Shown piece after piece: positions 3,001 to 55,882 of a DNA stretch of 64,000 nucleotides (within the stretch, counting starts at the first letter, position 1; every line of letters starts with the position of its first letter). The translations under genes were made by a program, and so were the position numbers. The notes under the pieces are model-generated. The model was not told the DNA's origin and ran no database searches. It saw nothing but the letters and a program-made list of their open reading frames with translations. The stretch comes from a virus. Location of the stretch: IMG/VR virus record IMGVR_UViG_3300045988_183585, positions 1 through 64,000 of that record; one strand, 5' to 3'.

Positions 3001-4685
3001 AGACCGTTGTAATCCTGAACCCCAAGATTGGCACCACGGCCAAGAACGCTGTTGGCGGCAAGGAGTTCATGCCTCTGGCTGATGTGGTTCTGGTGGATAC
3101 CATCTCCTACGAGAATATGCCCGTGGGTAAGGAGTTCATCGCTATCGGTACGCTGATGGATAAGTCCACCGGCAAGCCCGTTACCGATGCCAACGGCGAC
3201 CCCGTTACCTCTTACAAGGTGTTCACTCCCGAAGCTGCCACTGGTACGGTGGATGTGAAGTTCGTCTTTGACGCTTCCAAGCTGGCCGGCAAGTCTCTGG
3301 TGGTATTCGAGCGTGTGTATCTGGGCAACGAGATTGTTCCCGGCGACTCCAATAAACCCGTGTTTGTGAGTCACGAGGATATCAACGATGAGGGGCAGAC
3401 CGTCACCATCGGCGTTCCCGAAATCGGTACAAAGGCCGTGAACAACGCCACCAACGGCAAGACCCTCGACCCCGAAGCCCGCGCTGAAATCAAGGATACC
3501 GTGTCCTATAAGGGCCTGATTGCTGGCGAGAAGTACACTGTTTCCGGTAAGCTGATGAACAAGGCTACCAACGAGCCCCTGAAGGATAAGGACGGAAAGG
3601 AAATTACCTCCTCCGTTACTTTCACCGCTGAGGCGTCCAATGGCACTGTTGACGTGTTCTTCGTGCTCGATGCATCTCTGCTGCGGGGCCAGTCCATCGT
3701 TGTGTTCGAGTCCCTGCAGTACAAGGACATTGAAATCGCAGTTCACGCCGACATCGACGATGTTGACCAGACTGTGACTGTCAACAGCCCTGAAATCAAG
3801 ACCACCGCTAAGAACGCTGCTGATGGCAAGAAGGAATTCTGGGCCTACAGCAAGGTCGAGCTGGTCGATACCGTGTCCTATAAGGGCCTGATTGCCGGCA
3901 ATAAGTACACCGTAATTGGTAAGCTGATGGACAAGGCGACGGGTGAGCCTATTCTGGGCCGCAACAACAAGGAAATCACCGCCACTACCGAGTTCGAGGC
4001 CAAGTCCTCTGACGGTACTGTGGATGTGAGCTTCGTGTTCGATGCCTCCATTCTGGGTGGCAAGACGCTGGTCGTGTTCGAGACTCTGACCCGCAATGGC
4101 ACTACGGTCGCTACGCACACCGACATCAACGATGTTGACCAGACCGTGACTATCAAGCGCATCCCGACCTATTCCGGTCCGAGCATCTCTACGACTGCCA
4201 CCTTCGACGGCAAGGACAAGAAGAACTCCGTGGCTGGCAAGAACGTGAAAATCGTGGACACCGTCAACTACACCGGCCTGACTGTGGGCAAGACCTACGT
4301 GCTGGTTGGTACGCTGATGGATAAGGATTCCGGTGTTGCCCTCAAGGACAATAAGGGGAATCTGGTAACGGCTACCACGACCTTTACGCCCAAGTCCTCC
4401 AACGGGGCTGTGAATGTTACGTTCAAGTTCGACGCATCCAAGCTGAAGGACCATGCGCTCGTGGTGTTCGAGACTCTGTATGAGGGTCGTGCTGAGGCGG
4501 GTAATGTCATTGCTACCCACAACGACCTGATGGACGGTGCTCAGACTGTGTACTTCCGCGATAGCGTCCAGACCGGCGATGAAGGCATCGGCCTGTGGGC
4601 TATGCTGAGTACGTTCAGTGCCATCGCTTGCTGCGCTACGGCGATGTTCATGTTCCGTCGCAAGAAGGAGCAGTTCGCCGAGTAA
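1..4685 (+). CDS. cell-wall-anchored surface adhesin, 5'-truncated by window edge: Cna-B-type repeats followed by VaFE/TQXA (Thr-Gln ester) repeats; C-terminal hydrophobic anchor plus basic tail
   Basis: Frame open from nt 1. ~92-aa KTSEDG..FTVTG modules repeat ~5x. A second module type carries (L/I)VVFE and INDVDQTV motifs 5x. An RGD motif is present. The tail GLWAMLSTFSAIACCATAMFMFRRKKEQ follows a degenerate sorting motif (SVQTG). Confidence 0.8.
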   Translation, partial: NGSVWTATKYDSNRVLPNFDDFTFSLPGVTTIQSGYNLTINATAEAAKSMLNGIASYASEGNVIDPDSVNAYVLVAGGDKQDCVALNGWPDPVTAYVRAKVTKTTGDLTIAKTSEDGKVSGVSFTVTGPNGFNKTVTTAANGKITIADLQPGTYTVTEKMSDNYIPTTSQTVTIAIGDVKTVSFNNVLKKGTVKITKMSEDGQVAGHTFRLSGTSAAGTSVNMTATTDANGVATFNNVPIGKNYKLEEINTAAKYVVPEVQAGVVVEYNAATEAKFENKLARGNLKITKTSEDGFVSGMTFRLSGTSISGAAVNETATTDENGVILFKDILIGNNYTVQEINTAERYVVPAIQEGVTISLNKTTSLQFENKLARGAVEVKKTSEDGKTAGITFRLYGTAINGETVDMTAVTDANGIATFNNVLIGNNYSVEEVNTAAKYVVPEVKAGVKVTLGNTTDVEVYNKLKRGDLRVTKTSEDGLVEGITFRLYGTAISGDAVDMTATTNADGVAIFKDVLIGNNYTLEEVDTAVKYVIPAVQEGLVVEYQKTTDTAVSNVLKKWKVTVKKTDSETVDIPRGDGVFEGAVYGLYKGDELVKEYVIGKDGTFTTDEYICGYDYTIREIKAPTGYQIDETVYPVGTEPENYTIEHNSAPLITSVEVINRGTFAITKFISDGTSGPAKFEGGAEFIYWLQSAGSYENAKEDERGTLTTNELGYSGKSIELPYGTYVGRQTKAGDKGAGLAPEFTVLVGEVDRDHHDLAVNNGPITAYLRVVKVDELDGEVIPWGGAKFQIYDPDGNKVSQKVTYPTVTYIDTFETNDEGYFVTPLVLPYGENYHLVEIVPPKGYELMDTPITFSVTPDTISLDAETGLVTVNIIAEDEAVTPKVKTTATDKEGNKEIVPSTTVTIVDKVECTDVIPNKTYTVEGYLVVKSTGEPLLDAEGNRITASKTFKAEADFTGFVELEFTFDASLLGGESIVVFEDLKRGNRVVATHADINDVDQTVVILNPKIGTTAKNAVGGKEFMPLADVVLVDTISYENMPVGKEFIAIGTLMDKSTGKPVTDANGDPVTSYKVFTPEAATGTVDVKFVFDASKLAGKSLVVFERVYLGNEIVPGDSNKPVFVSHEDINDEGQTVTIGVPEIGTKAVNNATNGKTLDPEARAEIKDTVSYKGLIAGEKYTVSGKLMNKATNEPLKDKDGKEITSSVTFTAEASNGTVDVFFVLDASLLRGQSIVVFESLQYKDIEIAVHADIDDVDQTVTVNSPEIKTTAKNAADGKKEFWAYSKVELVDTVSYKGLIAGNKYTVIGKLMDKATGEPILGRNNKEITATTEFEAKSSDGTVDVSFVFDASILGGKTLVVFETLTRNGTTVATHTDINDVDQTVTIKRIPTYSGPSISTTATFDGKDKKNSVAGKNVKIVDTVNYTGLTVGKTYVLVGTLMDKDSGVALKDNKGNLVTATTTFTPKSSNGAVNVTFKFDASKLKDHALVVFETLYEGRAEAGNVIATHNDLMDGAQTVYFRDSVQTGDEGIGLWAMLSTFSAIACCATAMFMFRRKKEQFAE
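300..1690 (+). repeat. tandem coding repeats (~276 nt each) encoding Cna-B-type domains of the adhesin
   Basis: The KITKTSEDG..FRLSGT/FRLYGT protein blocks recur, with recurring nucleotide strings (aagacctctgaggatggc, ttccggctgt). Confidence 0.55.
2650..4560 (+). repeat. tandem coding repeats (~370 nt each) encoding VaFE/TQXA ester-bond domains
   Basis: Five modules share TTAKNA..GxKYTVxGxLMDK..FDAS.LxGxxLVVFE..H.DINDVDQTVT. Confidence 0.55.
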
Positions 4686-6279: not shown

Positions 6280-7836
6280 ATGGAGATGCGAGAAAATAAA
6301 AGGGGACTATTCACAATGGCAATGGATGCAGATTACACCCTCGTAAAAAAGTGGCGCAACTGGTTCGACCGGAAATACGGCGACGGTTATGGGCCAGCAA
6401 ACCTATTACAGCGGAGGACTATGAATACTGCGGTCGTCACTGTGAGTACACTGCAAAATATTCCTTTTGCTGAGTTATCTTCTTCGCTGTACTTCTTTTG
6501 TAGTGATATAGAGAGCAAGGAGTTCTCTCGTCTGTATGAGTCTCAGGTGGAGTTGGCCGGTGCCAACCCTGACAAGTTCATCAAGGGCCTTCATAGCTTT
6601 TTCAATACCACGGCCAAAAGAATCAAAAACGAATCCGAATACGCCCTGTTCTTTGATTTTCTCATGGCTGCATCTCGCCTTCTTTTTACCGCAAAGGAAG
6701 AAAAGCAATCTAACATCAACATTGATGTGGTGTACTGTTACTTCAGTATCCTCCTTCAGCAGACGGAATACCTGCGTCCAGATAAGTTCGACTTAACCAA
6801 AGTCGTCTGCGGTTTGAAAACGACCGGCGAACTGTTGGTCATGGAAGATACCTACCCCTTCTTGGATAAGCCTGCTTTTGAGTTGGAGCGCCGGCATCTT
6901 GATGGAAAGGTTCATTCTCCTATGGAACTGGACGCCCAAATCAAGGAAATCTATGGTAAATGGGGATATGACTACATCCAAAGCACAGATGATTTGGAAC
7001 TCTATACGCAAGTAGACAGAATTTTTTCCAATCAGATTGCGGGCATGGCTGCGCTCATCAACGAATACACCTTCGACATACTCCCACAACACCGCTTTTC
7101 TGCTATCGCAAATAAGTTCTTTTCTATTGTTGCGCTGCCCGTGATGATGCCTGATGAGATGCATGAGCTGCTGCGGACGAAACGAAGTTCGACGCTTCCT
7201 GCCAACGGCGCAGTTTTTGAATTTGCAAGCGAGAAGGATATCATCCGGAAAGTCTTGCTCAAGGAAACTCTATACGGCGATTCCATCTATATGCTTTACC
7301 GTCTGGACACCTGTGAGGGAGACTTGAGCGGGTACTATGATACTAAGACAGGGTTCTTCTTTTCGGTTTTCCTCGATTCAGAGGACAGAGTCATCTACGG
7401 GAACATAAGGCGGCTCGTTTTAACTCTCTATGCCTGTGCCGTAACACGTAAGGGCCCAGAACTGCTGGCGAGCCTGAGTGAACACATCAAGTACCTGTCC
7501 CTCGACGAAAAGGGTATTCGAAAGTTTGAGGATGTGTCCATAAGCTACTACGGTCGCGGAGGACGCCTCAGGAACGTCTACGACGGCACGGAAGCGACGG
7601 GGAAGGGTGGATATGCCCGCAAGGGCGACGAAGCCTATGAGGAGTCCCCCAGAGCCATTCAGGGCTTTATCCGCAAGGTGGGGGAGGGGAGGACACCCTC
7701 CCGCGAAGCTGTAGAGTATGCGGAGGCGCTTGGCTACTCTCTTGCGCCTGATGAGACTTATGTCCGCCCATTCATCCGGCGTGTTTTGCGTTTGCGGCAG
7801 AAGCCTGATAGAGAGGATACGATAACAATAAAATGA
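6280..7836 (+). CDS. hypothetical protein
   Basis: 518-aa ORF with no recognisable motifs; RBS and stop codon look normal. Confidence 0.55.
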   Translation: MEMRENKRGLFTMAMDADYTLVKKWRNWFDRKYGDGYGPANLLQRRTMNTAVVTVSTLQNIPFAELSSSLYFFCSDIESKEFSRLYESQVELAGANPDKFIKGLHSFFNTTAKRIKNESEYALFFDFLMAASRLLFTAKEEKQSNINIDVVYCYFSILLQQTEYLRPDKFDLTKVVCGLKTTGELLVMEDTYPFLDKPAFELERRHLDGKVHSPMELDAQIKEIYGKWGYDYIQSTDDLELYTQVDRIFSNQIAGMAALINEYTFDILPQHRFSAIANKFFSIVALPVMMPDEMHELLRTKRSSTLPANGAVFEFASEKDIIRKVLLKETLYGDSIYMLYRLDTCEGDLSGYYDTKTGFFFSVFLDSEDRVIYGNIRRLVLTLYACAVTRKGPELLASLSEHIKYLSLDEKGIRKFEDVSISYYGRGGRLRNVYDGTEATGKGGYARKGDEAYEESPRAIQGFIRKVGEGRTPSREAVEYAEALGYSLAPDETYVRPFIRRVLRLRQKPDREDTITIK

Positions 7837-28706: not shown

Positions 28707-28737
28707 AAAAAAAAGAAGCTCCCGAAGGAGCTTCTTT
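28707..28737 (-). terminator. intrinsic terminator ending unit B
   Basis: agaagctcc cgaa ggagcttct flanked by T/A runs. Confidence 0.6.
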
Positions 28738-28835
28738 TGAAAAAATGTGGTTTGTCTTGAAGCGAAAGAATCAAAGGATTTTTGCTCGGACGGGGGTATT
28801 TAAGATTTGATGTGTTTTCCCACAAAACTTAATTT

Positions 28836-30320
28836 TCAGGCAGGGATAAAAACCATGCCAACATTCTTTGCGAGAAGCGCACATCTCTTTGTTAAAACCC
28901 TTGCTCCTTTCGTAGAATTGTAATAGTTCGGTGTACCATTGTTCCGTCCTGATGAGCCCTGAAAGACGCCAACAGCCCCATCAAAATCCATCACCGCACC
29001 CGGCATGATACGAGCCATGTCCTTGTACTGGGGCGAGTGGGGCCTTACGGTGAGCTGCGATACCGCAGCGTCGCCGTAAGCCTCGCGGAACTCCTCCAGA
29101 CTATCGGACTTTTGCTCAATGGCCTTATGCCGGTTTGCTGCAACGACCTTGCCATCCAGAAGGTACTTCCGGTCAACCATTTGGCGGATGCAGGATTGCC
29201 GGTCGTGCCGACGGAACTGCTTCAGCTTAAAGGGTTCGACAGGTGTGGAGACCGTCGTATCCGCATCCAAAATGGAACACGCAACACAGTAGGCATCCGT
29301 GTAATGTTCTTTCGGCACGTTCTTGGCAATACGGAAGCCCTTGGTGGACTTACCATCCGTGGCATAGACATCGTAGGGAGTCTCTTCACCGAGGTACTCC
29401 ATCAGGAACGGGATAATCTGATTTAACACACTCAGGGCGTGGTACTTTTTATTCATACCGCCCTTGCTTGTGACCAGCTTCTCCGCCCACGCCTTGTCCT
29501 TGTGGACGAGGGCGTGATGCCTCTCGCAAAGCCCGCACCGGTTTGCCAGCGTCTCGCTTCCACCCTTATGGCGTGGAACAACGTGGTGATAATGGTCAAT
29601 GGGCTTCTTGCAGAACAGGCAATGTCCGTCCTGCTGTGCGTACACCGCATCCTCCACGGAACCCAGTCCGCACAGCGGACCCTGCTGGTATTCCCACCGA
29701 CGGATATTGGGATTATCCATCGCCATGAAAGCAAAGCGGTTTAGCTCCACTACCACCTTTGTGATGGGTAGAACCTTTGCAATCTTCGCAATCAGGTTAA
29801 TGTGGGTCTGCAGCAGGTGATTTGCTGTAGGTGTCAACCAACCCGCAGGGCGGCTGCGGTTGTTGAACCGCGCCTCCTTATTGCGGATATGGTGGCACAC
29901 AATGGGTGTACTGTATCCGGGGAGCAATCTCTCGACAGAACCCTCGGCGATAGTGGTTCCTGCAGCCTTCGCACGACGCTGACGCTTCCTGCGCCGGTCC
30001 AGCGTACGATGGTTTCTCCGAAACGCAGCACGCTTCTTCATCAAGAGAGGTACTTCCTTGTTGCGAGTCTCCAGATGTGCGGAGAACACGCACTGGCCGT
30101 CCTCCTTGACGACAGCAACGCCGATATTCGTCCTGCCGGGGTCGATGCCAAGAATCAGGTCTTGGGTAACATCAGGGGTATCATAGTTCAACTGGATGGT
30201 AAACGGGGTAGTGCAAACAACTCGTGCTTTCTTCTCCTTCAGGAGAAGGCGCACATAGCAATAGCGAGTTGTCGGCATCAAAGGTTTACCGTCTTTGTTT
30301 TGCACATAGACCATTGTCAT
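28836..30320 (-). CDS. iscB: IscB RNA-guided nuclease (PLMP domain, split RuvC with inserted HNH)
   Basis: GKPLMPT (PLMP domain). LGIDPGRTNIGVAV (RuvC-I). R-rich bridge helix RRNHRTLDRRRKRQRR. HNH CLFCKKPIDHYHHVVP..N..CGLCERHH. VVVELN (RuvC-II). HYTDAYCVA (RuvC-III). Confidence 0.9.
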   Translation of the reverse strand: MTMVYVQNKDGKPLMPTTRYCYVRLLLKEKKARVVCTTPFTIQLNYDTPDVTQDLILGIDPGRTNIGVAVVKEDGQCVFSAHLETRNKEVPLLMKKRAAFRRNHRTLDRRRKRQRRAKAAGTTIAEGSVERLLPGYSTPIVCHHIRNKEARFNNRSRPAGWLTPTANHLLQTHINLIAKIAKVLPITKVVVELNRFAFMAMDNPNIRRWEYQQGPLCGLGSVEDAVYAQQDGHCLFCKKPIDHYHHVVPRHKGGSETLANRCGLCERHHALVHKDKAWAEKLVTSKGGMNKKYHALSVLNQIIPFLMEYLGEETPYDVYATDGKSTKGFRIAKNVPKEHYTDAYCVACSILDADTTVSTPVEPFKLKQFRRHDRQSCIRQMVDRKYLLDGKVVAANRHKAIEQKSDSLEEFREAYGDAAVSQLTVRPHSPQYKDMARIMPGAVMDFDGAVGVFQGSSGRNNGTPNYYNSTKGARVLTKRCALLAKNVGMVFIPA

Positions 30321-30485
30321 GTGCGCTCATCTCCTTTCAGTAGTGTCTCACCTCCAGAGGAGGCGGTAGTGTCTCCCTTACCTCGGCGTATGCTTGGCAG
30401 AGCTGCGAGCTGGGAAAACCCGCAGGTGCATCCGTACCCTCTATCTGAGGGACTTACATACGTCGGTGTGGCTGTGACTATTAGA
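30321..30485 (-). ncRNA. candidate omega-RNA scaffold region upstream of iscB (within IS left end)
   Basis: A ~165-nt non-coding stretch between the left inverted repeat and the iscB start. This is where IscB omega-RNAs are encoded in known systems. No structure was verified. Confidence 0.3.
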
Positions 30486-30503
30486 CTTTTGTGGGGTTCC
30501 ACA

Positions 30504-31574
30504 TCAAATCTTAAATAGCCCTCGGACGGTATAGGTGAACGGAGCTACCCCATCATCCGAACTCTTATCCCACGATTCCTTGATTTCGTTGATGGGTACA
30601 CCTGCCACACGACGCCAAGCGACGTCATCGGCGAAACCATCAATCATCGGGATGTCCTCCAGAAGCGCATCAAGCGCACCGCCTTGGCGCAAGTCAATGT
30701 ACTTCGGATTGAGCATAACTGCTCCCTCAGAGAGCAGCATACGCGCCCAGAGCTGGTATTCCAGCGACCAACGGGACGTTTCCGTCGGCAGGTCGCCATA
30801 CAGCTCATCCAGTTTCCGCAGGATGGAAGCGCAAATCACACAACCTTCAGGATGTCCGTGATGCGTACCGAGATACGGCAGCTTTGCAAAGAACAGAGGA
30901 TTCCCAGAATACTCATCTTCCGCATAGGCGTAAAACGTCAGCTTCATGTCAGCCGCCGCGAAGAACCGGTCAGGAAGGATGTCCTTCACTTTGCAGTTGC
31001 TCCAGACGACATCATCCGAAAGGAATCTGAAGCCGAGAGGCTCCGTTCTTTCCGGTGTGAGGTACTTCCACGCCATATGGCGAACGAGGGCAACGAGCCC
31101 CAGCTCATGCCGCAGCGTCGGCACATCGTCAAAGATTCTGCGGATGTTTGCCCGCAGCTTCTCTTCGCTTCGTTCCACGCACTCGAAAAAGAGCTTACAG
31201 GACGACCCGTTCGTGAACACAACGCTCAGTGTCACGAGCCAAGGTGCGAAATCATCAGGCTTCAGAACATACTCTTTCTGCCCAGTACAGGCGACCGGCA
31301 CAAACCAACCACCCGCACGAGTTTCGCTATACGAAGCGTCCTCCGCAGCATAGGCGGTTGTTCTGAAGGCATCGTCGGTGTCCTTATCAGGAATATCAAT
31401 GGTATCGCCCTTGCAGATATACTTGAAGGGGACATACATTTCCACCTCTCTAATGCCGTCGCCATCTGCATCATCCGTATCACGGCAGTAACGCACGATA
31501 TGGACCAATACGTTCTCGTCGCAGTGCAGCTTTCGCTTATTCGAAATCAGATTATCCATGTTTTCTCCTTTCAC
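30504..31574 (-). CDS. hypothetical protein, paralog A of a tandem pair
   Basis: Shares PLFFAKLPxLG..PEG..LxKLDExYGDLPxxTxxWxLEYQLWARMLLxEGAVMLNPK with the next gene. Its last ~4 codons and stop lie inside the IscB left inverted repeat. Confidence 0.6.
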   Translation of the reverse strand: MKGENMDNLISNKRKLHCDENVLVHIVRYCRDTDDADGDGIREVEMYVPFKYICKGDTIDIPDKDTDDAFRTTAYAAEDASYSETRAGGWFVPVACTGQKEYVLKPDDFAPWLVTLSVVFTNGSSCKLFFECVERSEEKLRANIRRIFDDVPTLRHELGLVALVRHMAWKYLTPERTEPLGFRFLSDDVVWSNCKVKDILPDRFFAAADMKLTFYAYAEDEYSGNPLFFAKLPYLGTHHGHPEGCVICASILRKLDELYGDLPTETSRWSLEYQLWARMLLSEGAVMLNPKYIDLRQGGALDALLEDIPMIDGFADDVAWRRVAGVPINEIKESWDKSSDDGVAPFTYTVRGLFKI

Positions 31575-31576
31575 CT

Positions 31577-32614
31577 TCAGCCAGTTACGATGCAGGTAAA
31601 AGCCTCATCGCCGGACTCACTCATGTCATTCTCCCACGCCTCGGCGATTACGCTGATAGGTGTTTTGACAGCCTTTGCCCACGCAATACCGTCACCGCTG
31701 TCTTTCAGCATTTTATTACCGAATGCCAGCGTTATGAATTCGTAGGAGCAGTCGGGGAGGTCGAGGTGCTTCGGATTCAGCATGACCGCACCTTCTGCCA
31801 GCAGCATACGAGCCCAAAGTTGATACTCCAGTGCCCATTTTTCTGTGTCTTCAGGCAGGTCGCCGTACATCTCGTCCAGCTTCTGCAGCAGTTCTGCGAT
31901 TGCAGCACGTCCCTCAGGCTTGTTGTACCGTTCGCCCAAATCGGGCAGTTTGGCAAAGAACAGTGGGGACGCTGAATACTCGCCGTCGGAATAGGCGAAG
32001 AACGTCAGCTCCATGGCAGGGGAATTGAAGAACTTCTCAGAAAGAATGTCCTTCACACCGCACTGGGTGAAGTTTACGCTGTCCGAAATGAGGCGGAAGC
32101 CGAACTGCTCCGTCCACTCGCGGGTAAGGTCTCTCTTTGCCATGGCTGCAACTATGCCGGAATGCCGTCCGCAGGTGTTTTTCGGCTCAACACGCGGCTC
32201 AAATCTCGCCCGCATATTGTTGACGATAGCTTCAGTATCGTTGAGGACACTCTCAAAAAGCAGCCGGCAGCCGCGCCACGCTCCTTCGTCGGTGACGGAA
32301 AGGCTGATGATGTAGGGGGCAAAATCGGCGGGATGGAGAACCATTACCGTCTTGCCGCCGTCCTCAGTGACCTTCACAGACCAACCGCACTCGTTCCCGT
32401 ATCGCTCGTTCTTCTTGAACGAAGCATTTGTGAGAACGGAAAAGTGCAGCTCGTGACCATCGCTGAAGACGCTCACAGAATCGCTCTTGCGGATGTCCTT
32501 GAAAGGAACGAAGGTGGTCTCGAATCTGTCGTACTTAGGGTTGTGGCGGTAGACCTTAACCAACGTGTTCTCGTTGCAGAAGGATGCAGCGGCTCTGATA
32601 GATGTATTACCCAT
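31577..32614 (-). CDS. hypothetical protein, paralog B of the tandem pair
   Basis: See paralog A. It ends ..FTCIVTG, whereas A ends ..FTYTVRGLFKI. Confidence 0.6.
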   Translation of the reverse strand: MGNTSIRAAASFCNENTLVKVYRHNPKYDRFETTFVPFKDIRKSDSVSVFSDGHELHFSVLTNASFKKNERYGNECGWSVKVTEDGGKTVMVLHPADFAPYIISLSVTDEGAWRGCRLLFESVLNDTEAIVNNMRARFEPRVEPKNTCGRHSGIVAAMAKRDLTREWTEQFGFRLISDSVNFTQCGVKDILSEKFFNSPAMELTFFAYSDGEYSASPLFFAKLPDLGERYNKPEGRAAIAELLQKLDEMYGDLPEDTEKWALEYQLWARMLLAEGAVMLNPKHLDLPDCSYEFITLAFGNKMLKDSGDGIAWAKAVKTPISVIAEAWENDMSESGDEAFTCIVTG

Positions 32615-51366: not shown

Positions 51367-51390
51367 GTAGGGGCGCTTTTCGGTCGTAAG
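51367..51390 (-). terminator. intrinsic terminator ending unit G
   Basis: aaagcgccc gtag gggcgcttt. Confidence 0.6.
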
Positions 51391-51400
51391 GTCTCTCCTT

Positions 51401-52489
51401 TCAGGCGGGAAATCTGTGTGCGCTGATAATGCGGAGCAGCTCCCAGCCAAAGGTCTTTTTGTGAGCCTTTTCCTTCCCCTCATCATCGTCAAGACAAATG
51501 GCCGTGAAGACGTGCTTTCGTGCCTTGGGGTGGATGGCGGTGATGACATAGCTGCAGCCGCAGAAGTCGAACATCTCACGGTAGACGATGTCGATGCCTT
51601 CCTCGTCGAGTCGGCGTTGTATGACCTGCTTGTTCTTGTAGAACATAGCCTCCTCTTCCTTGCCTGACTCAATATGCTGGTCAGCAGCCATGCTGTCCTC
51701 AATATCACGCAGAATCTCTTCCACGCGGTTGAAAGGCCATTCAACGGTCTTGCCGGGTTCCTTGCCGTCCATCTGGCGGAGGGATACTCCGATGGGGAGG
51801 CTATTTTTGTCGATGCCCTCGATACAGTAGGTCGTTTCAATATAAGAGAACAACCTGCCGTAATCGGAATACTTCAGTTTATAGACCGGCTGCATGATAG
51901 CTTTATCCGCTTTGTGAAGCCTGAAGTGTTCCTCCCTCTGCCGGCAGAAGGCATCCCAGATGATTTTGGAATCAGGAATATCCTTGTCGGCATAGTAGGA
52001 TGTCCGATAGAAGGCAAAGGAAAACTTTGCAACATAGGTTTTCTCGACTCGCGGCAAAGAATCAGGCTTTTCATTTGAGTAGACGCTCTTCGACATACTG
52101 GCCCAGTCCGGCTGAATACGTGGTACAGTACCCAGCACCTGTTTCGGTGCAAATACACGAGCACTGTGCTTCGCCGCAGCCTGCTTCGCAGCAGCCATGA
52201 CATCATTATACATATCCGTCCAACAGAGCTTCATCCCACGCTTATTATCTGCGAAGAGCATATTGTTGAGGCAGATTGCAAGCGATACATGGGTGATGGT
52301 TGCGGCTCCGCCGGATACGTAGCAAATGTTGATGCGGCGGTTGCCACAGCGAGCCTCGCCAAAGGGGTCCTTGCAACAGTAATCCTTGTCCTTCAGCGCT
52401 TCATAGACGTAGTTGCATAGTGTCGTACAGAGGGATGAACCCTCTGTGCGTCCTATGTCGGCTGCGGTGTCAATGGTTTTCAAATCCAT
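51401..52489 (-). CDS. P-family paralog 4
   Basis: YCCKDPFG, IPDSKIIWDAFC, EEAMFYKNK, YREMF, FGWELL. Confidence 0.65.
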   Translation of the reverse strand: MDLKTIDTAADIGRTEGSSLCTTLCNYVYEALKDKDYCCKDPFGEARCGNRRINICYVSGGAATITHVSLAICLNNMLFADNKRGMKLCWTDMYNDVMAAAKQAAAKHSARVFAPKQVLGTVPRIQPDWASMSKSVYSNEKPDSLPRVEKTYVAKFSFAFYRTSYYADKDIPDSKIIWDAFCRQREEHFRLHKADKAIMQPVYKLKYSDYGRLFSYIETTYCIEGIDKNSLPIGVSLRQMDGKEPGKTVEWPFNRVEEILRDIEDSMAADQHIESGKEEEAMFYKNKQVIQRRLDEEGIDIVYREMFDFCGCSYVITAIHPKARKHVFTAICLDDDEGKEKAHKKTFGWELLRIISAHRFPA

Positions 52490-52510
52490 AGCTTTCTCCT
52501 TTCTTTGTTT

Positions 52511-53548
52511 TTAAGCTCCCCGACCGCTGCGGTCGGCGATGATTCTGTCGATGACCTCTTTATACATGAACATGACCTTATCACCGACAGCTTTGCCTTC
52601 CTCGTCCTCAACACAAATAGCGGTGAAGACATAGAGACTTTGTGCATTCGGCGTGATAGCGGTCAAGGCGTAGGTACGCTTGGCGTACTGGAACATTTCA
52701 CGATACATGAGGTCTACACCGTCACGGGCGAGGGCAGCTTTAATGCAGTCCTTGCCTTCGTAAAAATCAGCTTCCTCGTCCTTCGCAGCTTTCAGCTTTC
52801 GTGCGGGTATGTCGGCATCATCATCAAAAAGAGGCCTCCGAAGATTTGTCAACGGAACCACGATGATGCCTTCGTCTCCTGTACTTCCCGCAGGCTGCAG
52901 TCGCACGTCCAAATAACTGAACTCGTCCGCAAAGCCAACAATACGATACATGGCACCCTCATAGAGAAACTCACGCTCATAATCGGTTGCTTTTAGCGGA
53001 TAGAAAGGCATATGAGGAGGGCCGCTGGTGCGTCCTTTTTCATCTTCAATATCCTCTTGCAATCGCAGGCATCGGGCATCCCAGACGATTTTCTCATCAG
53101 GTACGTTGGGGTTGTTGTGGTACGGCGTCCGGATGAACTCGATACCGAACACCGCAAACCTGAATCTCCGTCCAGCGCCATTGCGCTTTGTTCCGAACGA
53201 CGGCTTTTGTACGAAAATTCGCGCCTTATACGTCTCCGCCACATACCACAAAGCCGCCTTAATATCATCGCGCATCTCACCAACACATGACTCAACGTAC
53301 TTGTGATTGTCTGCGTCTACGATGAGGTTGAGTGTGACTTCTGTGATATTAGCTTTTTCGTACGATACCTTGCACGGGTGGGGAAGGTCGGGGTCATTTC
53401 CGTAGCGTTCTTTTCCGAAGGGGTCTTTACAGCAATAGGCCTGTCCCTTCACATTGAACTCAACAACCTGTTTGATGAACTCACAGAGCCCATTCTTGCT
53501 GGTGATTGTTCCCGCACCAACGGTGGTGTCAAGTGTGTGCAGGTTCAT
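52511..53548 (-). CDS. P-family paralog 3
   Basis: YCCKDPFGKERYG, VPDEKIVWDARC, EEADFYEGK, YREMF. Confidence 0.65.
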   Translation of the reverse strand: MNLHTLDTTVGAGTITSKNGLCEFIKQVVEFNVKGQAYCCKDPFGKERYGNDPDLPHPCKVSYEKANITEVTLNLIVDADNHKYVESCVGEMRDDIKAALWYVAETYKARIFVQKPSFGTKRNGAGRRFRFAVFGIEFIRTPYHNNPNVPDEKIVWDARCLRLQEDIEDEKGRTSGPPHMPFYPLKATDYEREFLYEGAMYRIVGFADEFSYLDVRLQPAGSTGDEGIIVVPLTNLRRPLFDDDADIPARKLKAAKDEEADFYEGKDCIKAALARDGVDLMYREMFQYAKRTYALTAITPNAQSLYVFTAICVEDEEGKAVGDKVMFMYKEVIDRIIADRSGRGA

Positions 53549-53565
53549 AGCTTTTCTCCTTTCTT

Positions 53566-54585
53566 TCAGCGTTTTCCTCCATCGCGTTCGGCACGAATCG
53601 CCTCAATGACATCTCCAAACGAGAAGAACAGGACATCATCAAAGGTTTCACCGGATTCATCCACACGGACAGCACCGAAGATATCCTTTACTTTGGTGGG
53701 TATGATGCCGACCAGTGCGTAGGTCAAGCCATCAAGCTCAAACATCTCACGATACATCACGTCCACGCCAACACGGTCCAGTAGAGCTTGGATGTGCTTC
53801 TTATTTTCATAAAAAGCAGTTTCCGTCTCCCTTGAAACACTGACATTCTGCATTTCTGCAAGGTACAGGGCGTGTTCAACGAGGGACAAAGATACCTCCA
53901 TGGTATCGCCTTTATCTTGACCGTCTACACCTTGCACGAGTACCTCGTCCATGCTGTTTTCACCCATTCCGATGATACGATACAGGGAGCCTCCGAGAAG
54001 GAACACTCGCCCGAAATCGGAATTTTGAATGGTGTAATCAGTTTTCTGGCCGGCAGCAAATCGCGTATCCCGAATCTTACCGCAGCGTTTACACCAAATG
54101 TCTCTGTTGGCATCCCAGATGATTTTCTCATCAGGAATGCCGGTATCCTTGGCGTAGGGCGTTGATATGATGTAGACGTATAATGCGGCTGATTGGAATA
54201 AGGCGCCTGAACGAGCACCCATTGCCGCAGAGCAAAACGGCTGCTTCTTGATGATAGCTCGTGCCGAGTGCTTGCTTGCAATAGGTTTTATTGCAGCGCT
54301 TACGTCCCTCAGAATGGCCGCAGCCACGTCACGAGGCAGCGGGTTTATTCCGTAGCCGCCATCCAACGCAATGTTGATGACCAACTTTAAGATGTTGTAC
54401 TCCTTACCGAAGACATAACACATATCCCCAGCATCAGCACCGTAGCGCCTTTTACCGAACGGGTCTTGTCCACAATAGGTCTTGTTCCGAAGAGTGTATT
54501 CAAGCCCTGTGCGAATGTCTGTCAACAGCAAATCGGAGTCGATTTGTTCAGCACCGTATGCGGTGTCCAGAGCATCTAAATCCAT
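53566..54585 (-). CDS. P-family paralog 2
   Basis: YCGQDPFGKRRYG, IPDEKIIWDA, ETAFYENK, YREMF. Confidence 0.65.
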   Translation of the reverse strand: MDLDALDTAYGAEQIDSDLLLTDIRTGLEYTLRNKTYCGQDPFGKRRYGADAGDMCYVFGKEYNILKLVINIALDGGYGINPLPRDVAAAILRDVSAAIKPIASKHSARAIIKKQPFCSAAMGARSGALFQSAALYVYIISTPYAKDTGIPDEKIIWDANRDIWCKRCGKIRDTRFAAGQKTDYTIQNSDFGRVFLLGGSLYRIIGMGENSMDEVLVQGVDGQDKGDTMEVSLSLVEHALYLAEMQNVSVSRETETAFYENKKHIQALLDRVGVDVMYREMFELDGLTYALVGIIPTKVKDIFGAVRVDESGETFDDVLFFSFGDVIEAIRAERDGGKR

Positions 54586-54697
54586 AGCTTTCTCCTTTCT
54601 TTTTTGCTTTCAGCAGGTCAGGCAGCGACACACACTGCTGCACCGCCGTCCGAACCGCGCAGGACAGGGGAGAGGCAGTACCCCTCCCGTGCCTGAG

Positions 54698-55882
54698 TCA
54701 ATCAGGGTCCCTGCATTCCGCCATGAGTTCGATGAGGTCCCACCCGAAAAGAACACGGTGTCCATATTCGGGGGAGTCTGCATCACAGCAGACAGCACCA
54801 AAGATGTTTGTCCGTGCATCCGGAAAGATTTCGGTAAGCACAAAACTTGTACCGAGCGTATCGAAAATCTCTCTGTAGGTTACATCGAGCTCTTTCCACG
54901 CTTCAAGCATTTCAGCCCAAGACGACATACTCGTCTGCCGTGAGTGGGCCATGCGTTTTGTGAGACTTATTTTGTTCTTGTAAAACAAAGCCTCCTCATC
55001 TTTAGCCTTCAGCACCGTCAGCACTGTTTTGTCTTCGAAGTCATCTTCGTAAAGTGCAAGTTCAATGTCCTTAGCCCTCACATCTACCTTTTTGCCAGCG
55101 TTTTTCCCCTTGACGTATTCGAGTACGACGGAGGAATTGGGCTTCTCATGGTTGATGCTGAGAATCCGGACAATGGGGCTGCGAGGTTTCCCCGGCTTGA
55201 GGGGGAATTCACGACCGAAGTCCGCTGCACACAGCTCGTGCTTCGGAAGCGACTCTTTGCTTACTCTCCGGTCAACCATTGCCTTTCGACAGTAGGCATC
55301 CCAAAAGATTTTCTCGTCTGGAATCTCCGGATTGTCGAAATACGTCGAGTGGGCGAAGGTGAAATCAAAGTGAAAGAGGGGAAATGCAGCTCCATTAAGG
55401 GTGAACCGTCGTTTCTCTCTGCCTTTCACAAAGCAACGTGCTGACCACTGTTCAGCGGCTACCTTTACGGCCCGTTCCAACTTTTCCTGCAGTTCGTCTA
55501 TAAACGTCGGCTGCGGGGCCCCCATCTGTGACAGCTTTTCGAGAAGCGGTGACAGCTTTTCGAGAAGCAAGATGTTCACAGAATAGTGTGTGAGATAGAA
55601 GCATTCATCGTCATCGGAGACTTTGATGTCTGCCAGCGCATCAGGAAAATCACTTCCGTAGGATACATAAGTCTCTGTTGTCCGGCAGAATGTAGTTGGG
55701 TCAATACCCAAACGCTTCACTCCAAAGGGGTCTCCCTCACAGTCAGGTTCATTGCTGAACGCCTTTTGGACGACATCAATGATTGTGTCACGGATATTCT
55801 CCATGATGATAGCATTGGCGTGATACTTTTCGTGCTTGAGGATAGGTCTTGGAACCATCGTGTCAATGGCACGCAAATCCAT
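54698..55882 (-). CDS. P-family paralog 1, first gene of unit G
   Basis: DCEGDPFGVKRLG, IPDEKIFWDAYC, EEALFYKNK, YREIF, FGWDLI. Confidence 0.65.
   Translation of the reverse strand: MDLRAIDTMVPRPILKHEKYHANAIIMENIRDTIIDVVQKAFSNEPDCEGDPFGVKRLGIDPTTFCRTTETYVSYGSDFPDALADIKVSDDDECFYLTHYSVNILLLEKLSPLLEKLSQMGAPQPTFIDELQEKLERAVKVAAEQWSARCFVKGREKRRFTLNGAAFPLFHFDFTFAHSTYFDNPEIPDEKIFWDAYCRKAMVDRRVSKESLPKHELCAADFGREFPLKPGKPRSPIVRILSINHEKPNSSVVLEYVKGKNAGKKVDVRAKDIELALYEDDFEDKTVLTVLKAKDEEALFYKNKISLTKRMAHSRQTSMSSWAEMLEAWKELDVTYREIFDTLGTSFVLTEIFPDARTNIFGAVCCDADSPEYGHRVLFGWDLIELMAECRDPD

Follow-up and report, generated by a model that had tools for sequence, protein, structure and literature searches.

Which kind of transposase moves an IscB gene whose element is bounded by long inverted repeats? 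The question is raised by a locus on the minus strand of IMG/VR virus record IMGVR_UViG_3300045988_183585, of which positions 1 to 64,000 were analysed (the 64-kb window). A first-pass annotation of this DNA had described a minimal IscB (OMEGA, for obligate mobile element-guided activity) element with an imperfect inverted repeat at both ends, inserted in the 3′ end of gene 30504-31574, and had remarked that inverted ends are unusual for IS200/605. With a probability of about 0.62 for the reading as a whole, the best explanation is that the element at 28794-30520 is a non-autonomous DNA transposon, that its sole cargo is an IscB of the OgeuIscB clade with its omega RNA, and that it is moved in trans, probably by a DDE enzyme of the ISL3 family.

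The inverted-repeat arms, located at 28793-28827 and 30487-30521, are 35 nt long and 86% complementary, and the 18-nt core of the terminal inverted repeat (TIR) occurs exactly twice in the 64-kb window against an expectation of 0.05. On the plus strand, CTCGGACGG forms a perfect direct repeat of 9 bp that adjoins both arms (28785-28793 and 30521-30529), and because it abuts both of them the element proper is taken as 28794-30520 (1727 bp, minus strand). The left TIR (GGCTATTTAAGATTTGATGTGGAACCCCACAAAA, 30487-30520), found by inverted-repeat search, is kept at about 60 related copies, while the right TIR (reverse complement GGGTATTTAAGATTTGATGTGTTTTCCCACAAAA, 28794-28827) forms the end 8 nt past the iscB stop codon. 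Read on the minus strand, the locus runs ...TATA CCGTCCGAG / GGCTATTTAAGATTTGATGTGG ... CACATCAAATCTTAAATACCC / CCGTCCGAG CAAAAATCC..., with slashes at the element boundaries. The left copy of the 9-mer (CCGTCCGAG in this reading, 30521-30529) belongs to the 3′ end of the host gene and the right copy (28785-28793) follows the element; the two are represented by a single copy in the empty allele. A hairpin at 28711-28738 (minus strand), also found by inverted-repeat search, is the terminator of the host operon and lies downstream of the element rather than within it.

The element lies inserted in gene 30504-31574 (minus strand), 13 nt before its stop codon, and the last four codons of the gene, as judged from the open reading frame (ORF) and the empty-allele comparison, were replaced through the insertion. 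The encoded C-terminus reads ...FTYTVRGLFKI before the stop in the window versus ...FTYTVRAKIL in the uninterrupted orthologue, which is the proper comparator in place of the paralogue used in the first-pass annotation. When the reconstructed empty site CCGTCCGAGCAAAAATCC was used as a query against IMG/VR, the empty allele was found in five contigs related to the window (L147, L149-L152), each with one 9-mer in the context ...GCTCCGTTCACCTATACCGTCCGAG / CAAAAATCCTTTGATTC...; the junction reads ...TATACCGTCCGAG / CAAAAATCC... and the empty-site sequence is TTCACCTATACCGTCCGAGCAAAAATCC. Scattered substitutions excepted, the flanks of these alleles track those of the window closely over approximately 90-110 nt per side. 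The window copy is a real insertion with a 9-bp target-site duplication (TSD). The TIRs, the TSD and the empty alleles thus uphold the earlier description of an IscB element with imperfect inverted ends inserted in the 3′ end of the gene, its left repeat overlapping the last codons, and the search for empty sites that had been proposed gave a positive result. The TSD, which had been overlooked, makes the point about the unusual ends decisive.

Relatives of the window IscB, 84-94% identical to it, were collected from metagenomes and IMG/VR. Both TIRs, spaced 1.66-1.74 kb apart, are present at 62 loci and at many different sites; the repeat is thus not peculiar to the window copy, since the same one surrounds some 60 other copies. 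Among 40 unique flank pairs, perfect repeats abutting the ends measure 9 bp at nine sites, 8 bp at five and 7 bp at one, compared with 2 of 6284 mismatched left/right flank pairs having a repeat of at least 7 bp. For six other insertions, the left flank followed by one repeat and the right flank was found at 100% identity in other related contigs, and a further empty site lies inside the window itself (51388-51418, 30/31 identical) and is occupied in three contigs (L049, L046 and L100). There is no conservation in the final 4-5 nt of the left flanks, and no fixed tetranucleotide is common to the sites. The copies of the family are genuine insertions, with 8-9 bp of target duplicated, and up to three or four of them occur per replicon or contig.

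Several observations on the family were made alongside. A TnpB-like gene (OrfB_IS605) and a sister IscB element overlap at the 3′ end of the former in L024 (2742-3794 and 3786-5528) and also in L042-L044, L097, L098, L102 and L111; the element's target, GCCTCCGAG / CAGAA, resembles that of the window, CCGTCCGAG / CAAAA, while the upstream genes are unrelated, a likeness that hints at a target preference. Solo copies of the left-end hairpin (45-50 nt, the TIR and its pairing partner), lacking iscB and a right end, lie just past host stop codons at L141 ~1152(-), L142 ~4323(-), L120 770(-), L139 4513(+) and L144 1064(+); no TSD was seen at them, and they may be deletion remnants or tiny MITEs (miniature inverted-repeat transposable elements). 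An apparent 2.6-kb element at L144 1064-3711 was rejected, its second arm having three mismatches and its cargo being unrelated secreted proteins. In L121 (4360-4540), an intergenic cluster holds five motifs of the TTTTGTGGGA / TCCCACAAAA type, equivalent to the inner TIR motif, and is possibly an array of binding sites belonging to the host replicon. A scan of the genome collection with the TIR 18-mer returned 21 matches against about 17 expected by chance, all but one solo and unrelated; L011 (Dysosmobacter segnis, NZ_JACOQI010000012.1) has at 7043-7066 a solo exact match of 24 nt to the left TIR (GGCTATTTAAGATTTGATGTGGAA), positioned between genes that by eye are TetR-like and SLH-repeat-like, with no partner within 8 kb. 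No match was obtained by blastn of the element against phages or of the TIRs against plasmids, and a viral scan with the OgeuIscB-type TIR described below returned an IscB locus only. In L088, a truncated IscB relative of 301 aa (3052-3957) has an IS4/IS5-type DDE_Tnp_1 transposase gene (1342-2658) directly upstream of it, probably an unrelated insertion sequence.

The iscB gene occupies 28836-30320 on the minus strand and encodes 494 residues, identified from the ORF, Pfam, NCBIfam and structure alignment. Pfam RRXRR matches the N-terminal 214 residues (E=3.5e-50), and with the NCBIfam equivalog NF040563 guided_IscB the score is 233.8 bits (cutoff 175). OgeuIscB structures 7xht, 7utn and 8csz align with the protein end to end (E ~1e-198, roughly 60% identity), with conservation of the RuvC-I aspartate (GIDPG), the RuvC-II glutamate (VELNRF), the HNH motif (HHVVPR...CERHHALVH) and RuvC-III (HYTDAYC). 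The protein, in which the first-pass annotation had already recognized the hallmarks of IscB, passes the family threshold and keeps the catalytic D/E/H/D motifs intact, so it is assigned as an IscB RNA-guided endonuclease with predicted nuclease activity. Because the match to OgeuIscB is full-length and annotated plasmid and phage iscB genes are just 27-32% identical, it is placed in the OgeuIscB clade specifically.

The same kind of ends is found around closer relatives of OgeuIscB. These OgeuIscB-type proteins have ~60% identity with the window protein and ~70% with the PDB sequence of OgeuIscB, and their TIR is GGCTCTTCCAACTTWATGGTTG, that is GGCTCTTCCAACTT(A/T)ATGGTTG. Perfect 8-bp TSDs flank L063 (GTCAGCAA) and L064 (ATATTAGG). 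P0064, at 87% identity the closest natural relative of the OgeuIscB PDB sequence with both ends readable, is carried by a 1729-bp element (L164, L166, L167) with perfect 22-bp TIRs and an 8-bp TSD, TTTTTGAG; the TSD is 8 bp in all four OgeuIscB-type cases. The window element represents another lineage of the same protein clade, with common catalytic motifs and a diverged TIR and stem-loop 1 (GGCTATTTAAGA... in the window versus GGCTCTTCCAAC... in OgeuIscB).

Directly upstream of iscB, the window is predicted to encode a cognate omega RNA that is structured and has its guide 5′ of the scaffold. The 200 nt from the left terminus to the ATG are conserved across the window-type and OgeuIscB-type groups (alignment A1), and the scaffold of ~200 nt (30321-30520, minus strand, to the iscB ribosome-binding site (RBS) and ATG) was placed by alignment, folding and the length and position of the OgeuIscB RNA. 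Its minimum free energy is -65.3 kcal/mol (z = -2.57). In the core stem (30397-30429, CACC-stem-CCAG-stem-GCUCUG), RNAalifold shows compensation at six pairs, among them those seen in CUGCGGG/CUCGCAG, CCCGGGA/UCCCGGG and UUUAAGA/UCUUAAA. Stem-loop 1, the guide adaptor hairpin (30476-30520, scaffold nt 1-45), has the left TIR as its 5′ strand; its outer stem is 91% paired over 21 diverse sequences and contains two compensatory pairs with A-U to C-G exchanges. A search with the Rfam covariance model HEARO (RF02033) gave a local match to the core stem only (33 nt, model positions 93-127, E=0.1), scoring 17.7 bits where the gathering score is 83; the RNA has the HEARO core motif in common with the model and is too diverged or differently built for it. 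An omega RNA had indeed been proposed at this site; the structured, covarying RNA upstream of iscB stands, and its confinement to the ~165 nt inside the repeat does not, the start being the first base of the repeat, 30520.

The cryo-electron microscopy structure of OgeuIscB defines a 206-nt scaffold whose first element is a guide adaptor hairpin, G1:A43-U14:A30, with the guide immediately 5′ of G1 (PMC9640706). Applied to L063 and L164, this published numbering, on which the identity of scaffold nt 1 rests, gives a 14-pair hairpin that begins exactly at the first G of the TIR. Because the numbering reproduces the hairpin from that G, scaffold nt 1 is predicted to be the first transposon nucleotide, and the guide is therefore predicted to be flanking DNA, TSD included. 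For the window copy this would be the 17 nt at 30521-30537 (minus strand, CACCTATACCGTCCGAG) of host DNA directly 5′ of scaffold nt 1. The plan of the window RNA is the same as that of OgeuIscB: a scaffold of ~200 nt upstream of iscB, a first hairpin of ~43-45 nt, the CACC/CCAG/GCUCUG core and a guide from outside the element.

Such a guide would distinguish the two alleles. OgeuIscB recognizes the target-adjacent motif (TAM) NNRR and needs ~14 TAM-proximal matches (PMC9640706). In the five empty alleles (L147, L149-L152) the guide 17-mer is followed by CAAA, which fits NNRR, whereas GGCT, found after it in the occupied allele, does not fit, and at the right junction the match to the guide is limited to the 9-bp TSD. 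No promoter-like site was found between gene 30504-31574 and the left end, and the host operon terminator (28711-28738) and the next promoter are both past the right end. At 18 of 39 sites, the 40 nt downstream contain an RBS-like motif of a following gene on the iscB strand, versus 1 of 39 in the mirrored configuration; this orientation test replaced a longest-open-frame test, which was uninformative in this GC-rich DNA. Since the copies are by this test co-oriented with host operons and the left end lacks a promoter-like site, read-through from the upstream host gene, probably 30504-31574 in the window, would give an omega RNA that starts in the flank. Its 5′ ~17 nt (CACCTATACCGTCCGAG) would be flank-derived; IscB with this RNA would cleave the empty allele (CAAA TAM) and spare the occupied one (GGCT), and recombinational repair from the occupied copy would convert empty plasmid or phage copies, a form of homing or drive.

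As to what moves the element, a DDE transposase of the cut-and-paste type, encoded elsewhere in the host, would make the staggered target cuts and act in trans, and the mover would not be the Y1 TnpA of IS200/605. An ISL3-family enzyme is the most likely candidate because the TIR tips, the inner motifs and the 8-bp TSDs match those of real ISL3 elements, and on these grounds we consider ISL3 mobilization in trans probable. ISL3 TIRs are 15-39 bp long and start with GG, typically GGCTCTT; the window ends start GGCTATTT.../GGGTATTT... and those of the OgeuIscB-type GGCTCTTCC..., in agreement with this pattern. Ends were compared for ISArsp7, Microcystis ISL3, ISPpu12, ISEfa11/5, ISKpn25 and a gut ISL3 family. 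ISArsp7 has the left inverted repeat GGCTCTTCGCGGTTGGTGGTGAAT and an 8-bp repeat (PMC6305408), and Microcystis ISL3 elements, together with a MITE mobilized by them, have GGCTCTTCG... ends and 8-nt repeats (PMC11448079). ISPpu12 on pWW0 (annotated as ISL3-like element ISPpu12 family transposase) has the inverted repeats GGGTATACGGATTTAATGGTTGAT and GGGTAAGCGGATTAAATGGTTGAT; the stretch TTAATGGTTG at nt 13-22 is common to its inverted repeat and the OgeuIscB-type TIR, which agree at 15 of 22 positions overall. ISEfa11 and ISEfa5 start with GGCTCT(A/T)T and have 8-bp TSDs, and the right inverted repeat (IRR) of ISKpn25 starts with GGCTATTTG.

The human-gut ISL3 family, which is abundant in IMG/VR, encodes Pfam DDE_Tnp_ISL3 (1.2e-61) with an ISL3 zinc ribbon and a helix-turn-helix. 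Its ends, GGGTATGAAACTATAACTGTGG and GGGTATATAACTTTAATTGTGG, are 17/22 identical to each other, its IRR is 15/22 identical to the right TIR of the window (GGGTATTTAAGATTTGATGTGT), and perfect 8-bp TSDs occur at 8 of 11 sites; the ends were read by motif-anchored and homology-boundary analysis, the automatic inverted-repeat finder being spurious on AT-rich flanks. In sum, the IscB element is like ISL3 elements and MITEs (ISPpu12, ISEfa11, ISArsp7 and the Microcystis ISL3-MITE) in its tip, GGCT(C/A)TT or GGGTAT, in inner TTAATGGTTG or TGTGG motifs in the same register and, at OgeuIscB-type copies and part of the window-type sites, in 8-bp TSDs, and ISL3 elements likewise tolerate passenger genes (ISPpu12a) and have non-autonomous derivatives mobilized in trans. 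It differs in that no ISL3 transposase was found in or near it, window-type copies have mostly 9-bp TSDs, its cargo is an RNA-guided nuclease and its left TIR doubles as part of the guide RNA. The left end of the gut family (L189-L254; e.g. L192 ~494-2818) was further seen to have subterminal repeats of ATAACTTTAAnTGTGG in tandem, and a stretch of variable length (0.35-0.9 kb) separates this end from the transposase gene. In L225 at ~3399(-), 0.6 kb from an ISL3 element, GGCTCTTCCAGATTAGATCTAG has the OgeuIscB-type TIR tip as its first 10 nt and may be the end of another element.

A number of points weigh against this reading, the weakest link being the cognate transposase. Neither a Y1 TnpA nor a DDE transposase is encoded among 20 large and 75 mid-size ORFs of the 64-kb window, in keeping with the earlier remark that no TnpA is present in the element. 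Neighbouring ORFs of 330-620 aa, in 47 clusters around ~100 copies, include no transposase, only TnpB and a serine recombinase, and no relevant transposase was found among the neighbours of distant IscB relatives. The ISPpu12 TnpA had no ISL3 homologue by tblastn in 1.24 Mb of collected sequence, and an ISL3 profile scan of IMG/VR found none on an IscB-bearing contig among 80 of 176 ISL3 loci. The likeness to ISL3 is a matter of ~22-bp ends (15-17/22) and TSD length, and the window-type TSDs are 9 bp at nine sites, the window copy among them, and 8 bp at five, while the ISL3 elements checked all have 8 bp. We infer ISL3 mobilization rather than observe it because no cognate transposase was found and window-type TSDs are mostly 9 bp. 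Roughly half of the flank pairs are without a TSD; such sites often have one flank in common with another site, left and right flanks occurring in new combinations (L112, L036, L069, L032/L038, L153-L162), as expected if copies on the same replicons recombine to give inversions or deletions, which would explain them though it is not proven. With regard to the proposed homing, the TAM-contacting residues of the window IscB are partly unlike those of OgeuIscB in the alignment. The support that the TAM gives to homing is qualified too: of 16 sites tested, 10 have NNRR after the TSD, where the background RR frequency is 0.29 (p~0.006; 11 of 17 with the later-found L164), and purine-rich ribosome-binding sites confound this enrichment. 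Transcription, the ends of the omega RNA and nuclease activity of the window copy are predicted.

The published model for IscB elements (PMC4810608, PMC9640706) would have the element moved in the canonical IS200/IS605 manner, as single-stranded DNA by a Y1 TnpA acting in trans, the "inverted repeats" being subterminal hairpins. Small imperfect hairpins do lie within both ends of the window element, and IS605-family TnpB genes are found near copies in some contigs. Y1 transposition, however, produces no target duplication and uses a fixed adjacent motif of 4-5 nt, while 15 independent sites here have perfect 7-9-bp duplications of unrelated sequence. The model is also contradicted by the occupied/empty pairs, in which the empty sites hold a single copy; the left flanks end in no conserved 4-5-nt motif; and the ends are true inverted repeats of 22-35 bp rather than hairpins, with no Y1_Tnp found in the window. 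We regard this model as very improbable. An even lower likelihood, close to nil, is given to the view that the repeat and the 9-mer are a coincidence or an assembly artefact around an immobile iscB: the presence of only a single copy in the window would fit it, and it is refuted by the same ends at ~40 sites in independent assemblies and by presence/absence polymorphism at exact boundaries.

The main rival keeps the TIR/TSD layout and assigns it to another DDE family with 8-9-bp duplications (e.g. IS6/IS26, IS1, IS256 or IS1595) or to an undescribed one, which is unlikely but deserves serious weight. A mixture of 8- and 9-bp TSDs, as observed here, suits IS1 or IS256 better than ISL3 by the ISfinder family tables and counts for this rival, as does the failure to find an ISL3 gene near any copy. 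IS6-family ends also start with GG and have 8-bp TSDs (PMC6807381), a further likeness in its favour. On the other side, published ISL3 ends have exactly the tip GGCTCTTC, ISPpu12 and the gut ISL3 family have their inner TTAATGGTTG and TGTGG motifs equally far from the tip, and a comparable match to another DDE family was neither sought nor seen. Alternatively, IscB and its omega RNA might insert themselves, a staggered cut being filled in to give the TSD with no separate transposase, in line with the failure to find a transposase near ~100 copies and with the RNase-H fold that the RuvC domain has in common with DDE enzymes. The old flank determines the guide, but the insertion sites are unrelated in sequence, and an IscB cut was dropped as the source of the TSD since those sites do not match previous guides; we know of no strand-transfer activity for IscB, and perfect ISL3-like TIRs are a need of a DDE transposase, not of a nuclease. 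Self-insertion is thus highly improbable, slightly more so than movement by Y1 TnpA. Site-specific recombinases and casposases were dropped as well, TSD length and target diversity being unfit for them.

The host replicon was characterized from the rest of the window, which contains a T-Q ester adhesin, topoisomerase III, Fic, CobT/VWA with an AAA partner, DUF4942 and a MazF-like toxin. In its gene content the window resembles a conjugative plasmid, or a replicon of the kind of an integrative and conjugative element, from gut Firmicutes, with relatives filed in IMG/VR. No Pfam or NCBIfam model matches the paralogous neighbours 30504-31574 and 31577-32614 (minus strand, ~350 aa each). ORFs of 340-400 aa, also without a Pfam match, form another run over 51401-55882, of which the one member compared, 51401-52489, is unrelated to that pair.

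The founding description of IscB/ISC elements (Kapitonov 2016) reported no TIRs, fixed 4-bp targets in or adjacent, no duplication and Y1 transposases (PMC4810608), and a 2026 review repeats this account, listing DDE, tyrosine-recombinase and Cas1 associations for TnpB and Fanzor only (PMC13565253). The present element resembles ISC/IS200-IS605 elements in being short (1.3-1.7 kb), IscB-only, non-autonomous and multicopy with a structured 5′ RNA. It differs in having TIRs of 22-35 bp (35 nt here, perfect at 22 bp in L164) where IS200/IS605 has asymmetric ends without TIRs, and TSDs of 8-9 bp (9 bp here, 7-9 bp at 15 sites) with no fixed target motif where IS200/IS605 has no TSD and a fixed 4-5-nt target. 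A parallel in architecture is provided by TnpB and Fanzor in DDE transposons (IS630-linked TnpB and others; Altae-Tran 2023, PMC10691335), where an OMEGA nuclease also lies within symmetrical inverted ends and solo nuclease copies have the same ends, with the difference that the guide is at the 3′ end. A full-text literature search returned no paper that connects IscB to ISL3 or to TIR/TSD elements. To judge by the literature that could be searched, the OgeuIscB-clade cassette on a TIR/TSD (ISL3-like) non-autonomous transposon described here puts a known nuclease in a vehicle of a new kind.

The Y1/IS200-IS605 view of IscB underlies the "restorative homing" account of why transposons keep RNA-guided nucleases. 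The clade of the best-studied IscB instead bears the footprint of another transposase class, namely TIRs, 8-9-bp TSDs and exact empty sites, and comparable transposase associations have so far been reported for TnpB and Fanzor alone. A transposon end would here double as part of a guide RNA, and a left TIR that is the start of the scaffold would explain, for engineering purposes, why the OgeuIscB scaffold opens with GGCUCUUCC... The natural occupied/empty pairs let the predicted guide and TAM be read directly, which makes the homing or drive hypothesis testable. In the broadest form of the proposal, to which we give even odds, the whole OgeuIscB clade, genome-editing enzyme included, would have left IS200/605 and would ride ISL3-type DDE transposons as a MITE-like passenger, with its transposase-binding left TIR merged with the guide adaptor hairpin and its guide reprogrammed to the new flank at each insertion, and would act as an RNA-guided gene drive that converts empty copies of gut plasmids and phages.

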